A stretch of DNA of 64,000 nt from Eledone cirrhosa (Eukaryota), in assembly GCA_964016885.1 (NCBI GenBank), contig OZ024743.1, forward strand, positions 180,172,001-180,236,000. Direction: 5' to 3'. This document shows, piece after piece, positions 33,707 to 61,856 of this stretch. The notes beneath the pieces were generated by a model. It saw only the letters and a list, made by a program, of their open reading frames with translations, was not told where the DNA came from and did not search any database. The stretch's first letter is position 1. Every line of letters begins with the position of its first letter. A program made the position numbers and the translations under genes.

Positions 33707-34837
33707 TAGAAGTGGTTACACAGCTGTTAGTTCACCATACCGAGAACAATTGTTTCACCTTAGCGGATCCTCAGCTCTTAATGGACATGGTTATACGTAA
33801 CTGCAAGGACAACCGTACGAACGCGCATGCGCAGAAACCGTCACTTCCGTCAGGCAACACTAAATTGCGTGCGAGAGGTGTAAGGGAGATAACTGCGAAA
33901 GTCCGAAAGTTTTTAGTTGATAAGAAAATTAGGATGTTGTTGTAATTGAATCCCGAGCTTTGTAGTTACGTATGAGGTGTTTCCAGACATGTGGACAACG
34001 TGTGGAGAATTCAAAACTTGAGTTTAGGCAATCGCTATTGCGTAATCTCTTTAGAATATTTATTCGTTCATCAATACATAGTCCACACGACAGATTGCCC
34101 CTTGCGTATGGCTTGGACTTAGTGATGGCTTTCCATTGAATGGAGTAGTCTATACTTGAGTCCTTGAGGGAACATACGTGGCTCGCGAGTTTCGTGGATG
34201 AACGTCTGTCCGGGTACCTAAAGGTCGACTGGTGGTTAAGGAAGTGTTCCTTAAATCGGCCCTCCACCATACCCACATAGGATCTGACCTCCTGTGGTTG
34301 ATTTGGTCGGTTGGAAGTGACCACAGCTTCATAAATGATAGCGAGTTGGTTGCATTGCTGTTGAAGGGACAAGTTTCGGGCTTACGGCAAGAGCACCCTG
34401 GTGGGGTGTTTCTCTTAGGGCTGTTGGTGATGTGGTCCTTCATGTTCTTAGCGCAGGAGTATCATAGTTTTACTTTGTGTCGGTTAAAGATGGAGCGGTA
34501 TTTATGACCCATGCCAAGGTGTCTATCTAAGGGGGCTAGAAATTGTTTGCCTACATTGGTTTTAACGTTGAGTGAGAAGGGAGGAGAGAACAAGATAGTT
34601 TGTCTATTGTTGCGCTTTGTTTTCTTATTGCTGTTGTTGTTAGTGGGAGAGTAAGTGATAGCTTGCGAGAAGCCGCTTTTAGCTAACGCCGTGTTATAGT
34701 AGGGTGCCGCTCTGTCAAAGATAGCCTTATTAGAAGAGAGGTTCGAGATTCTAACTTGTGTAACCACTCCTACCTAACTCGTCCTCTGGACTGAGTGCTC
34801 TACCACTACAGATATTCCCTTCCAGTGTTCTACCACT
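33707..34837 (-). mobile_element. 5'-truncated Penelope-like element (family E): thumb + GIY-YIG, pseudo-LTR and inverted tail
   Basis: ORF pieces PPFSLNVKTNVG, CSCRKPETCP, IIYEA...YVGM and CGLCIDE, homologous to 41027-41686. TAG(A/G)AGTGGTTACACA at about 33707 is inverted at about 34757-34772. Confidence 0.8.
33742..33777 (-). ncRNA. Minimal type I hammerhead ribozyme (U-U at base of stem II)
   Basis: gag CUGAGGA u cc gcuaa gg u GAAAC aauu GUU cuc; stem III region is palindromic (AACAAUUGUU). Confidence 0.65.
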
Positions 34838-34860
34838 ATATATATATATATATATATATA

Positions 34861-35290
34861 CAAGTACAATAACAACAAACACATATAAACAGACTAGTGA
34901 ACAAAATACGAAAACAAAAACACATACACTCAAAAGCGAACACACACACAAAACATTATACACACGCAAACGCATGCGCAAAGACAGAGACAAGAAGAAA
35001 TAAATAAATTAATTAAAATGAAAATGGCGTAGAATACAATATAGTACGAGGAACATAATAGTTTCCACTGATGATGTTACAGGTGTGCAACGAAAGAACT
35101 TTGATAGAATATATATATCCATTTATATATGTATATTTAACCGCTGGTCAATCAATGATAAACATTGATGGCCAAACAAATTAACTGTGGTGATAAAAGA
35201 TACAGAACCGAAAACCAACCAAACACTGAGTATGTTCTGTTATTATTTCTGGCAATATTACAATATGACCCTCCCCAAGTATAACAATAT
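34861..35290 (+). mobile_element. Solo pseudo-LTR of Penelope-like family C, with hammerhead motif at 35063-35106
   Basis: Homologous to 63660-64000; CUGAUGA u guu..aac GAAAG aa CUU; ends ATGACCCTCCCCAAGTATAACAATAT in (TA)n. Confidence 0.7.
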
Positions 35291-35628
35291 ATATATATAC
35301 ATATATATATATATATATATATATATATATATATATATATATATATATATATATGTGTGTGTGTGCGTGTGCGCGTGTGTGTATGTATCTATGTATATGT
35401 ATGTATATATATATATATATATTTCGTTTCTGAATTTGTTTAGCAAGATTATTTATCTGAAAACATGTGTTGAAACCGATATTGTTATACTTTCGGAGGG
35501 TCATGTTGCCAATAAGAAACACACGCACCAGATGCATTCACTTCAATTTATTATAATAAATTTATAAATTTAGGAATTTATAAATTTCCGGTTGGTTGGT
35601 TCCACAACCAGATGATTGTTTATATATT

Positions 35629-35671
35629 GTCAAAGTTCTTTCGTCACACATTCTGTGACCTCTTCAGTGAC
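35629..35671 (-). ncRNA. Type I hammerhead, family C pseudo-LTR
   Basis: guca CUGAAGA g gucac agaaugu gugac GAAAG aa CUU ugac. Confidence 0.7.
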
Positions 35672-37587
35672 TGAGGATTATTTTCTTTGTTTTTGGGCCA
35701 CTCCTTTGTTCTGTCCTACGCCATCTTGTTTGTGTGTGTGTGTTGTGTGCTTAGTTTGCGCATGTGTTATATCCGGGTGTCTGTGTGTGTTTATATTCGT
35801 TTATTTATTTGTTTATTTACATGTTACTGGTTGGTTGTTTGTTCTATGTGCGTGTATGATTTCATTTTGTCCTTAATTGTAAGTTTTGATGATGCTGTTC
35901 CATTCCTGTTTTCTATTTAATTTTGGTTGGAGTTCATTTATGTTTATTGCCTCTGTGATTTGTCTAAACATTGCGTCTTTTCTGTGTGTAGATTCTATTT
36001 TTATTTCTATGTTCTCTAATTTACCCTTATGTTCTATTTTAGCATGTTGGTAGAGTACAGATGATTCTTTACTATCTTGAAGGTCTCGCCAGTGTTCATT
36101 TATCCGTTCCCCTATACTACGAGCTGTCTCACCTATGTACACTATATTTTTATCTCTACATTGTCCTTCAGTACATCGTATGCTATATACTACATCTCTA
36201 GTTTTAAAGTTAATATGGGGGTTTAATTTACAGATTATACATTTCTTATCTATACAGGGAGGTCTTTGAAAAGGGTATGTATTGCTAATAAATGTTTTTA
36301 TGGAGGTACCTGATCTTTCTACTATCTTAATATTGAGTTTATGTTTATCTAGGGCCCTTCTAAATTTGTAAGCTAATTCACCTCTAGGGGTTGTATCGAT
36401 GAACATTACACTCTGGTATTTATTGCTATCATACCATGAGTTTATTCTATTAGCCTTATTCCTAGTTCTTTCTATTCTATTCCAAAATTTGCTCCTATAC
36501 AAGGGGCAGGTCCCATTTGTGTCATTATTTACCATTTTTTCCCATTTGGTTCTGGCTCCTCTATATACTCTTATTTTATCTCTCTGATTGCAACCAGAGA
36601 ACTGCATACGGTGGATGAAGTGTTGTATGTGTCTCTCTAGTTCTTCGGGGTTGCACATGCGGGACACGTTTCTCACGTTTACTACGATGTTTATATCATC
36701 AGCGTAGCGGGAGTACATTGTCAGGGTTAAGGGGTCTTCTAATGGTTCTTTAAGTTTAAGCTTAAGTCTACTGTCCCACCATACCATGATTAGGTTAGCT
36801 ATGTCGCCTGCAATGCTAACACCAATGGCTGCTCCCTCCTCTTGGGCATATGTTTTTCAATTAAATTTGAACATATGTTCCTTAAGGGTTAATTCTATGC
36901 TGGCCCCCACCGCATGTGCAATCATTTTCTTTAGTTCGTCGTGGTTTTCGGGGTCCGTATGGCTCTGGTCCAACCGTTCCATCTATCTGTGTGCATTTTA
37001 TTGGCCATTGAAGTAATGGTAGGTAGTCTGCCTCTTGCTGGTCTGCTGGTCTTGTAGGGCACAGCTTGCTAAGGCCATAAGTATCTAGATAATTATTACT
37101 ATAGGTAAGTTTAAGTAAGAGTCCCAGCTCACTGGTATCAATCCCACGGAATTCAACATTGCTCTCACTGATCATTTCTACGCATGTCTCCACAGCAAAA
37201 TCCACGTCAATAGATGGATACAGGGAAACAACATCCATACTACCTATTATGCAGTTTGTTAGGTCCCTAGATCGGTTACCCACGCCGATTCTGCTGAGGA
37301 GGTCATCCGTGCTGTCACATACATCTGGGGACATATCAATGATGGGGCGTATGATCAGGGAGAGGAAGTAGGAAAGTCTGTAGTTACTAGCAATGTTAGC
37401 TCCACAGACTCGCCGTGTTGGTGGTCCTGTGACAGGGTCACTGCTCGTTTTATGCTCTTTCGAAGCCCATACAACGGTGGCACGTCATTGTTCCAGGCCT
37501 GGAAGTTGTTGGCAGTCCCTTTGTTGGGCTGCATTATATTTGTCCACATAATCATATAAGGCACAAAAACAAAGAAAAGAATCCACA

Positions 37588-59965: not shown

Positions 59966-60476
59966 TATATATATATATATATATTTATATATATATATAT
60001 ATATATATTTATATATATATATATATATATATTTATATATATATATATATATATATTTATATATATATATATTTATATATATATATATTTATATATATAT
60101 ATATTTATATATATATATATTTATATATATATATATTTATATATATATTTATATATATATATATTTATATATATATATATTTATATATATATATATTTAT
60201 ATATATATATATATATTTATATATATATATATATATATATATATATATATATATATATATATATATATTTATATATATATATTTATATATATATATATTT
60301 ATATATATATATATATATTTATATATATATTTATATATATATATATTTATATATATATATATTTATATATATATATTTATATATATATATATTTATATAT
60401 ATATATATTTATATATATATATTTATATATATATATATTTATATATATATATATTTATATATATATATATTTATAT

Positions 60477-61075
60477 ATATTGTTATACTTTGGGAGGGCC
60501 ATGTTGCCAATAAGAAACACACGCACCAGTTGCTTTCACTTCAATTTAATTTATTATATATTTATAAATTTACAAATTTATAAATTTCTGGTTGGTTGGT
60601 TGGTTGGTTCCACAACCAGATAGTTGTTTATATATATATAGTCATAGTTCTTTCGTCACACACTCTGTGACCTCTTCAGTGACTGGGGATTTCTTTCTTC
60701 GTTTCTGTGCCTTTCCTTTCTTCTATCCTACGCCATTTTGAAAATGGCGTAGGATAGAAAATGGCGTAGGATAGAAGAAAGGAAAGGCACAGAAACGAAG
60801 AAAGAAATCCCCAGTCACTGAAGAGGTCACAGAGTGTGTGACGAAAGAACTATGACTATATATATATAAACAACTATCTGGTTGTGGAACCAACCAACCA
60901 ACCAGAAATTTATAAATTTGTAAATTTATAAATATATAATAAATTAAATTGAAGTGAAAGCAACTGGTGCGTGTGTTTCCTATTGGCAACATGGCCCTCC
61001 CAAAGTATAACAATATCGGTTTCAACACACGATTTCAGATAAAGAATCTTGCTAAACAAATTCAGAAACGAAATA
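60477..61075. mobile_element. Fold-back pair of family C pseudo-LTRs, hammerheads at 60640-60684(-) and 60813-60857(+)
   Basis: Left arm 60477-60739 is inverted in the right arm; aguca CUGAAGA g gucac..gugac GAAAG aa CUA ugacu. Confidence 0.88.
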
Positions 61076-61419
61076 TTTATATATATTTATATATATATAT
61101 ATTTATATATATATATATATATATATATATATTTATATATATTTTAAACTTTTTAAACTTAATTGTATATTTATATATATAGTTATATATATATATATAT
61201 ATATTTATATATATATTTATATATATATATATTTATATATATATTTATATATATATTTATATATATATATATATTTATATATATATTTATATATATATTT
61301 ATATATATATATATTTATATAGGAACGATCGACTTTCGTCAAATCGGACCGAAGGAACAATGTTTCCGTTGGTCTTTCCAATTGCTAATACTATCTATCG
61401 GCCGCAACTCCAGGTAGAA

Positions 61420-61536
61420 GGAGCAACGTGAAAGTGTCTTGCTCAAGGACATAACGCATCGCCTGGTCCAGGAATCGAACTCACAACCTTACAATTGCGA
61501 ATCCAATTCTCTAACCACTCAGCCACACGCCTTCAC
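61420..61536 (-). mobile_element. tRNA-derived SINE, 5' part
   Basis: A box TGGCTGAGTGG, B box GTTCGATTCC, core GTCCTTGAGCAAGACACTT. Confidence 0.8.
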
Positions 61537-61665
61537 AAATATATATATAAATATATATATATATAAATATATATATAAATATATATATATATATATATAA
61601 ATATATATAAATATATATATATATATATATATTTATATATATATATATATTTATATATTTATATA

Positions 61666-61856
61666 TAGGAACCAAGTAAGACCCCGACAGCAGAGCTCAA
61701 GCCGTTTCGACGGCTAATTCAGAATTAGCCGTCGAAACGGCTTGAGCTCAGCTGTCGGGGTCTTACTGGTTCCTATTACCCACTCTACTACCTCAAGTAT
61801 TGAGTACTTTGGTGCGTTATGGTCCACCTGGTTCCTTACCGCATTTCCTTCGTTAT
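61666..61856. repeat. 55-bp-arm palindrome of the half-hammerhead tag plus 80-bp extension
   Basis: 61666-61720 and 61722-61776 are near-perfect reverse complements with a 1-nt apex. Confidence 0.8.

Follow-up and report, generated by a model that had tools for sequence, protein, structure and literature searches.

Insertions of EN+ Penelope-like elements (PLEs) have been described as composite units in which 5′-truncated copies, pLTRs formed by partial tandem copies and an adjacent inverted, 5′-truncated copy occur together (PMC8557442; PMC3846280, Pen2a_Av), with head-to-head the commonest arrangement, a tail that is often one-sided, (TA)n targets and hammerheads in the pLTR (PMC8557442; PMC3846280). 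The head-to-head polarity is already published and was explained by self-priming (PMC3846280), and the formation of tandem and inverted PLE insertions has been named as an open task (PMC8557442). In the available portions of a study of a purified PLE protein, PAc (Poseidon of Anolis), both target strands are cut and extended at AT-rich targets, two start sites on the RNA bracket the tail and are used alike on both strands in vitro, and a dimer is predicted (PMC11167929). Animal non-LTR retrozymes appear, in the available sections of two accounts, as non-coding, AT-rich tandem repeats whose units measure a few hundred bases and bear a single type I hammerhead, coexisting with PLEs, which are proposed as their mobiliser (PMC7229834; bioRxiv 10.64898/2026.07.22.740005); in those sections canonical hammerheads are tied to retrozymes in PMC7229834, and the 2026 preprint allows canonical and minimal forms. 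The insertions described here resemble the EN+ PLE units in these traits, with hammerhead motifs seen in three of the four coding families, are comparable with the PAc reaction on the points listed, and include non-coding repeats of the retrozyme kind.

The window is a 64,000-nt stretch of the Eledone cirrhosa assembly GCA_964016885.1 (contig OZ024743.1, positions 180,172,001-180,236,000, forward strand). The initial annotation had claimed at least eight fold-backs here, and the eight it listed are all real: self-BLAST run after masking of (TA)n (unmasked self-BLAST is flooded by (TA)n matches) detected inverted arms at seven, the eighth having an arm of only 24 nt. The families involved are A, B, C and E, which are coding PLEs, and D and F, which are non-coding hammerhead repeats. 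Arms are named by their outer end, S being the short end site and T the end after the tail, with tail lengths of 26-88 nt across families. The parts of the window are as follows.

33707-34751, minus strand: family A PLE, long S arm; 5′-truncated EN-coding remnant, hammerhead motif 33745-33774
34752-34828, plus strand: family A, short T arm; 24-nt inverted copy and ~55-nt tail, stopping at (TA)n
35423-37559, minus strand: family B PLE, long T arm; 58-nt tail, pLTR with hammerhead 35633-35667, RT/GIY-YIG remnant
37560-37780, plus strand: family B, short S arm; hammerhead 37592-37626
38872-39261, minus strand: family C PLE, T arm; 88-nt tail, hammerhead 39010-39059
39264-43132, plus strand: family C, S arm; upstream partial pLTR, frameshifted full ORF 39460-41686, 3′ pLTR with hammerhead 43032-43081
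47923-48193, minus strand: family D, T arm; 48-nt tail, non-coding, ~490-nt tandem unit elsewhere
48194-48602, plus strand: family D, S arm; hammerhead 48300-48330, longer than the T arm and tail-less
51440-52020, minus strand: family C, S arm; extends ~600 nt upstream of S
52021-52308, plus strand: family C, T arm; extends 194 nt upstream of S, plus tail
54149-57805, minus strand: family F 311-nt hammerhead repeat (retrozyme-like), S arm; 11.8 units, end at unit position 140
57805-59966, plus strand: family F, T arm; 7.0 units, end at unit position 166
60477-60740, minus strand: family B, S arm
60741-61072, plus strand: family B, T arm; 17-nt apex duplication
61665-61714, minus strand: family E PLE stub, S arm
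61715-61853, plus strand: family E, T arm; ~77-nt tail
33046-62265, no strand: (TA)n-type target tracts between the insertions, the longest at 43131-47922

Masked self-BLAST gave identities of 96% between the family B arms at 35492-35699/37560-37767, 100% and 97% between the family C arms at 38877-39043/39264-39430 and 51448-51638/52021-52210, 98-100% in two pieces for family D (47971-48193/48390-48602), more than 99.9% between the arms of the 311-bp family F array around its turning point at 57805, 92% for the family B inverted arms within 60488-61005 and 95% for those of family E within 61670-61771. The family A fold-back (33707/34757), missed by BLAST, has a 24-nt arm with two mismatches and a 2-nt gap, and is credible only because family A repeats the layout elsewhere (19/19 opposite-strand neighbours head-to-head among the matches listed). 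The divergent polarity noted earlier holds at 8/8 fold-backs, as read from hammerhead orientation for families A, B, C, D and F, from ORF orientation for A, B and C, and for family E from an intact 786-aa ORF at another locus. The outer ends had been said to abut (TA)n; at four loci the coordinate given was the end of the inverted repeat and not of the insertion, whose arm extends further until it reaches (TA)n, so that 34757 moves to 34828, 39440 to 43132, 47971 to 47923 and 61776 to 61853. At least six single-arm pieces sit between the fold-backs, and convergent neighbours are present in the window too, but separated by (TA)n tracts (five examples). All eight apexes are known from assembled sequence.

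The initial annotation also suggested that one shared integration mechanism probably acts across several unrelated families, including ORF-less ones. Six families are present (four coding PLE, two non-coding), but the A, C and E proteins are homologous (identity to E of 40% for C and 30% for A) with B distant, and only D and F are ORF-less, E being the stub of a coding family. Families A, B, C and E have a single ORF encoding RT followed by a C-terminal GIY-YIG endonuclease, as in EN+ PLEs. In family B the GIY-YIG match (E 1.7e-4) lies just below the curated cut-off and RVT_1 is weak; the intact family E ORF (L146) is without a Pfam match, its YRDD and YIG motifs being identified by direct reading, and the best of its 2,054 homologues carries PF01541. 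A PDB search returned weak RT matches only. Cysteine motifs of the kind listed for Neptune/Nematis (PMC8557442) occur in the A, C and E proteins, from which B again stands apart. All four PLE families show 5′ truncation, an adjacent inverted copy and a one-sided tail, and a pLTR from a partial tandem copy was seen in C (39264-39430 of the window, L096, L101 and L109) and E (L146). The (TA)n around the insertions would mask any target-site duplication. A motif scan placed a type I hammerhead in the pLTR of A, B and C and found none for family E in the window or in L146, L147 and L149, and an Rfam search of the window gave no hammerhead match, only chance microRNA hairpins. Family F has a 311-nt unit with 18 intact hammerhead motifs in 18.8 units, and no ORF of at least 120 aa inside the array; units of family D are spaced mostly 460-540 nt, slightly above the 150-450 bp range of non-LTR retrozymes. 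Both are non-coding tandem repeats with one type I hammerhead per unit, whose sequence motif is minimal and has a palindromic stem III, and comparison with the coding families revealed no sequence link beyond simple repeats and no coding partner. Folding of the end regions, run with no shuffle control, predicted hairpins and no obvious common structure. A fold-back DNA transposon or MITE was rejected: the ends differ by the tail, each apex is different, and there are no fixed matching TIRs.

Genome samples were found by motif searches, and tallies are of exact motifs in the first 100 matches listed per family, mostly on contig C1, and therefore favour young copies. Exact-motif genome counts were 26,687 for B, 27,078 for E, 9,081 for C and 5,311 for A; family F has about 1,200 dispersed insertions. 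The polarity tally called for by the initial annotation bore out its expectation, with 121/127 opposite-strand neighbours head-to-head in families A-E and 48/52 in F (pooled, 169 head-to-head versus 10 convergent) among the first 100 matches listed per family, and 0 head-to-head and 1 convergent neighbour for a non-PLE control repeat (100 matches). Five of the 10 convergent pairs were examined, and TA runs lay between the partners in 5/5. The 100 fetched F stretches held 85 fold-backs, 17 single arms (17/102, about 1 in 6) and no tail-to-tail pair. Polarity alone does not demonstrate the proposed origin of the inverted arm as a second target-primed cDNA; we infer such an origin from the arm-length and end data, which it fits. 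The F unit was also present in sequencing runs under 18 organism labels, with no RNA run among those listed; horizontal transfer of F is unsupported, as both low-depth runs examined (X1 and X3) also contain family C traces, as carry-over would.

A feature overlooked by the initial annotation is that one arm ends at S and the other runs through the 26-88-nt tail to T in 146/152 pairs among the matches listed (F 48/48, B 22/24, C 32/32, E 27/29, A 17/19). The same was found in 83/83 scorable fetched F fold-backs, a set that overlaps the 48 F pairs; two F fold-backs interrupted by a locus edge or gap were left out, as was L084, a duplicate of L049 adjoining an N gap. No S+S pair occurred among the scored pairs (families A, B, C, E and F), and five T+T pairs were found in the family A-E tallies of listed matches. 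Either arm may reach farther: S in 38 and T in 44 F fold-backs (n=83), S in 13, T in 12 and a tie in 5 for family C (n=30), and S in 8, T in 9 and a tie in 2 for family B (n=19), the count leaving out C loci L101 and L109 and B loci L123, L124, L129 and L145 (tandem tail, double or T+T structures). At 21/49 B/C loci the longer arm is tail-less and the shorter one tailed, so neither arm is able to template the other. Arm lengths are nevertheless coupled beyond chance (short/long ratio 0.546 versus 0.455 permuted, P 0.0002). Apex phase in F is uniform (p 0.45), F apex overlaps of at least 2 nt are enriched (30/52 versus 9.4 expected), and symmetry was seen at 7/49 B/C apexes, some of which fall on internal palindromes. 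The coupled lengths and symmetric B/C apexes are also compatible with a hairpin intermediate. F arm stops showed no pile-up at S/T sites, which also speaks against L1-type twin priming. Hammerhead cleavage as the usual 5′ arm end was rejected, with 5/166 F arm stops at most 6 nt from the cut versus 3.2 expected; all five represent one position.

The two arms of a fold-back also share a haplotype. F arms were concordant at 69/72 loci, with 28 haplotypes and chance sharing of 0.12 (13/85 fold-backs with one arm shorter than one unit were left out, and the discordance flag at L078 is an alignment ambiguity), and 18 variants are each confined to a single locus, where they are fixed in both arms. 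Arms were 99.7% alike within a locus versus 97.4% between loci in family C, and 99.0% versus 97.1% in family B. In F, the haplotype switches after two outer units in both arms of L067, and a private change of the outer unit is common to both arms at L054 and at L173. The arms of L086 are discordant and the variants shared at L055 and L043 are out of register, so that one molecule in a fixed register is an incomplete account. As read from the sequences, private variants fixed in every F unit point indirectly to a monomer bottleneck, and the mosaic arms of L067 and L086 suggest templates that were multimeric or switched. Post-insertion conversion between arms could be an alternative source of shared variants.

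The reading we favour, at a probability of about 0.72, is that the fold-backs are head-to-head PLE and hammerhead-repeat insertions in (TA)n with S+T ends, each made in one event from two target-primed cDNAs of one RNA sequence joined by microhomology. The PLE protein would nick a (TA)n tract on both strands, and the two target 3′ ends would prime reverse transcription on the same RNA sequence, one of them at S and its partner at T, which lies 26-88 nt further 3′. Both cDNAs might be drawn from the same RNA molecule, the polymerase making one of them displacing the other, or from two sister transcripts of one source locus. Each cDNA would stop at a variable point, and the free cDNA ends would be joined via few-base microhomology or filler and then made double-stranded. 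This machinery would also act in trans on the 311-nt and ~490-nt hammerhead repeats, taking either circular RNA or a multimeric transcript as template, in which case the F and D arrays would have started out as multimers. Family F, with its about 1,200 insertions, has the PLE footprint, and its arrays were likely born as multimers made by PLE enzymes. Somewhat short of even odds is a more specific version, in which a PLE RT dimer would load both nicked strands onto one RNA at two fixed sites with one polymerase trailing and displacing the other, a 311-nt circle would give two head-to-head rolling-circle multimers, and retrozyme 'satellites' would arise full-size in a single event. The equal use of both start sites in vitro does not by itself predict strict S+T pairing.

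Of the rival explanations, a self-priming hairpin survives best, in which a single strand, either antisense RNA or the first cDNA, serves as its own fold-back template and endonuclease trimming leaves one S and one T end (PMC3846280; tail by EN resolution, PMC8557442). This would account for the shared haplotype, outer-end register, microhomology and coupled arm lengths, and is favoured by the symmetric apexes at 7/49 B/C loci and by the many family E pairs just 66-106 nt apart among the matches listed. However, the template arm can never be shorter than its copy, and a cut with a constant stagger would tie end class to arm role, yet S and T arms are longer equally often; an S-primed cDNA lacks the tail, yet 21/49 B/C loci pair a long tail-less with a short tailed arm; F apex phase is uniform and not near-symmetric; and the arms of L086 and L055 cannot derive from one strand. 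Near-strict S+T ends, tails of 26-88 nt, a longer arm of either class and a single haplotype argue against the self-priming account of PMC3846280, which we consider unlikely. Less probable again is later rearrangement, in which break repair adds an inverted duplicate of a single-arm insertion or local array and unequal crossing-over lengthens the F arrays (the satellite route, bioRxiv 10.64898/2026.07.22.740005). Variants recurring at 5-, 7- or 21-unit spacing within single F arms (L040, L043 and L044) show some local array change and complex F apexes exist (L031, L043 and L086), but rearrangement offers no source for a tail missing from the other arm or for fixed S/T ends at (TA)n in six families, the flanks are unmirrored, and the F arrays, with 81 private substitutions in 254 kb, are very young as well as dispersed, so that this account is largely refuted. 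A library or assembly artefact from fold-back reads or chimeras is scarcely credible: the eight apexes rest on assembly and the F locus L084/L049 is duplicated adjoining the N gap, but an artefact would give symmetric arms with flank and ignore family-specific ends, the control repeat has none, arms of older copies have diverged (92-98%), run X2 contigs show S and T ends entering TA, and a run X3 contig contains a minus-then-plus joint of family C.

In LINE-1 twin priming, two target ends prime one RNA and yield a 5′ inversion reading away from the junction, the two pieces covering different parts of the RNA. The dual priming proposed here would likewise use two target ends on one RNA, with an inverted piece diverging from the junction; L1-type twin priming itself was rejected, as the arms here start in the same 3′ region and overlap, giving an inverted repeat. 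Unlike in the published PLE units, the one-sided tail is near-strict here (146/152 pairs among the matches listed), tails are 26-88 instead of 30-40 nt, either arm can be the longer, both arms are of one haplotype, and family E is without a hammerhead by scan. A literature search over the main texts of openly accessible papers found no work deriving the inverted arm from two-site dual priming or reporting head-to-head retrozyme arrays. The available sections of the retrozyme accounts do not describe head-to-head arrays with PLE-type S/T ends such as those of F, the words 'inverted' and 'opposite' being absent from PMC7229834 and 'head-to-head' from bioRxiv 10.64898/2026.07.22.740005. The proposal that PLEs mobilise animal retrozymes has so far drawn on coexistence and phylogeny only. 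The polarity was known before; the tens of thousands of young insertion ends here form a test set. Compared with PAc, in the portions available of that study (PMC11167929), the inverted arm was not derived from the reaction and the strands did not differ in start site, whereas the genomic data here imply that each site is used once per event. Sharp predictions for that existing in vitro system follow from the S+T rule, the freedom of either arm to be the longer and the haplotype common to both.

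The genome searched comprised 3.0 Gb, and the window lies on its contig C4 (180172001-180236000). In the right half of the window, long (TA)n tracts spanning 31 kb contain a nest of no fewer than 14 insertions, counting six single-arm pieces of Penelope-like elements (PLEs). One (TA)n-type tract spans 4.8 kb (43131-47922), and nearly all insertions fetched from the rest of the genome are also flanked by long TA tracts. Features of the window beyond the fold-backs (insertions of two inverted arms that join at an apex) were as follows.

2156-3196: direct duplication of 400 bp (96%) flanking a 200-N gap (2559-2758), probably an assembly overlap
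4330-7935 and 14269-17832: retroelement, two copies 87% identical, the first with a 957-aa ORF (RVT_1)
10079-11956 and 20134-21878: further RT remnants
23782-25794: Helitron Rep-type ORF remnant (Helitron_like_N, E 1.9e-48)
34870-35287, 37811-37866, 46919-46968, 48912-51374, 53520-53899 and 62270-64000: six further PLE pieces (B-like, E, C) without a visible second arm

Self-comparison of the window with (TA)n masked confirmed fold-backs at seven of the eight places proposed in the initial annotation, with inverted arms 92-100% identical; at the eighth (33707/34757) the arm is 24 nt only. Families A, B, C and E encode RT and GIY-YIG-type proteins, which are homologous in A, C and E and distant in B. 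Families D and F consist of non-coding units repeated in tandem, about 490 nt and 311 nt long, respectively. A motif scan placed type I hammerheads in A, B, C, D and F (stem III palindromic in four of these), all pointing away from each apex as had been claimed, and found no hammerhead in the window copy of family E (61665-61853). Family E is also divergent, its sense being fixed by an intact 786-aa ORF at L146, a locus elsewhere in the genome; this 786-codon frame (L146:2879-5239) starts inside the pseudo-LTR and tail.

In all eight window fold-backs the arms differ in where they end, a feature that the initial annotation overlooked: one arm stops at a short end site (S), followed by (TA)n, and the other passes through a 26-88-nt tail to a second site (T) before entering (TA)n. 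This difference explains why four of the coordinates given in the initial annotation do not touch (TA)n.

Exact motifs were searched across the whole genome and tallied from the first 100 matches listed, mostly on contig C1, with opposite-strand neighbours sought within 7 kb (A-E) or 20 kb (F). Among the matches listed, head-to-head polarity was seen directly in 24/25 pairs of family B, 32/33 of C, 17/17 of D, 29/33 of E, 19/19 of A and 48 of the 52 opposite-strand neighbours of F. Ten neighbours were convergent; all five of those checked have TA runs between both ends and are therefore neighbouring insertions. A non-PLE control repeat (3,767 matches), counted by eye, gave no head-to-head and one convergent pair among the first 100 listed. 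S+T pairing prevailed among the matches listed (F 48/48, C 32/32, B 22/24, E 27/29, A 17/19), the others being five T+T pairs and one unclassified, with no S+S pair among the listed matches of these families. Because a tally of pairs fitting both motifs could be biased, the fetched set also included F ends for which the list showed no partner. The 100 F stretches fetched in all (one duplicate dropped) contained 85 fold-backs and 17 single arms, with S+T in 83/83 scorable fold-backs and no tail-to-tail join. Genome motif counts (618 S and 623 T junctions, forward strand) indicate about 1,200 F insertions.

In most F loci the two arms share a haplotype. In 72 F loci with at least one unit in each arm, the units formed 28 haplotypes, such that two random loci share one with a probability of 0.12; the arms were concordant in 69/72 loci, and 18 variants were each fixed in the two arms of exactly one locus. 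Three loci were flagged as discordant, of which L078 was rejected as an alignment ambiguity. In each arm of L067 the two outer units carry one haplotype and the rest another, in a register that follows the outer ends and not the apex, and the arms of L086 are truly discordant; these two loci require a mosaic or switched template. Private changes common to both arms occur in the outermost unit of L054 and L173, and common changes lie out of register in L055 and L043; 51 private changes in overlapping F parts are not shared between arms. Private variants fixed in all units require a bottleneck of one monomer, such as a circle would impose. Arms of C and B are likewise closer within one locus than between loci.

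Either arm may be the longer: S reaches further in 38/83 and T in 44/83 F loci, S in 13/30 and T in 12/30 C loci (five ties), and S in 8/19 and T in 9/19 B loci (two ties). A self-primed hairpin, the main rival explanation, fits the positively coupled arm lengths and the symmetric apexes. However, 21 B and C loci combine a long tail-less arm with a short tailed arm, as do the window loci 47923-48602 and 51440-52308, and neither arm can template the other, since the longer one has no tail and the shorter one does not extend far enough. In many cases, then, the arms are not copies of each other, and both need an outside template, which makes the hairpin unlikely. Later rearrangement fits poorly and is improbable; artefact, also a poor fit, is the most improbable of all.

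Apex positions are evenly spread over the F unit. Filler or a gap is present at 32/84 F apexes; the remaining 52 show microhomology, with overlaps of at least 2 nt occurring three times more often than chance predicts. Complex apexes at L031, L043, L065, L086, L129, L133 and L134, with double inversion, 19-nt inserts or internal jumps, resemble products of template switching where the arms meet. Five arms, all S (L061, L153, L156, L165, L169), stop exactly at unit position 4, which borders stem I and lies three bases before the predicted hammerhead cut. Pausing at the folded ribozyme and run-off from cleaved RNA are candidate readings; in three of these loci the T arm is the longer one. A 16-nt inverted repeat (unit positions ~14-29 and ~250-266) brackets the hammerhead at window 57935-58245; in the fold predicted for a circular F unit it forms the base of a long stem, and two apexes (L071, L158) use it as microhomology.

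Taken together, we consider it likely (probability roughly 0.7) that both target ends would prime on one RNA sequence, one at S and the other at T, and that the two cDNA ends would then be joined. The RNA could be a single molecule or a pair of sister transcripts; the simplest source of strict S+T pairing is a single molecule, on which each site occurs once. The F template could be a circle or a multimer. Independent sequence data are few: S and T ends enter TA in contigs of sequencing run X2, and a minus-then-plus joint of family C is present in one X3 contig.

The F unit was found nearly intact in runs X1-X20, under 18 coded organism labels; the two low-depth runs that were compared also carry family C traces, so that carry-over seems a better explanation than horizontal transfer. 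One F insertion is present twice beside an N gap (L084 and L049; C1, 56.26 Mb), probably because the assembly includes both haplotypes of this place.

The literature search, which covered papers outside subscription and without their supplements, found no paper on two-site dual priming or on head-to-head retrozyme arrays. In the excerpted text of PMC11167929, a purified PLE protein, a predicted dimer, cuts and extends both target strands and starts at two RNA sites bracketing the tail. Passages of PMC3846280 describe head-to-head as the most frequently observed arrangement and propose self-priming on an antisense template, and those of PMC8557442 describe (TA)n targets and a neighbouring inverted copy, with a tail that is often confined to one end, and list how such structures arise among the open questions. 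PLEs have been proposed as mobilisers of animal retrozymes in portions of PMC7229834 and of bioRxiv 10.64898/2026.07.22.740005, the latter also discussing local amplification of retrozyme arrays. The fold-backs are real, their polarity ordinary and their detail informative, and through these counts the open question on mechanism becomes directly testable. Their architecture is that of the known PLE insertion unit; the retrozyme multimers, arranged head-to-head and bearing PLE ends, are a variant not found in print.
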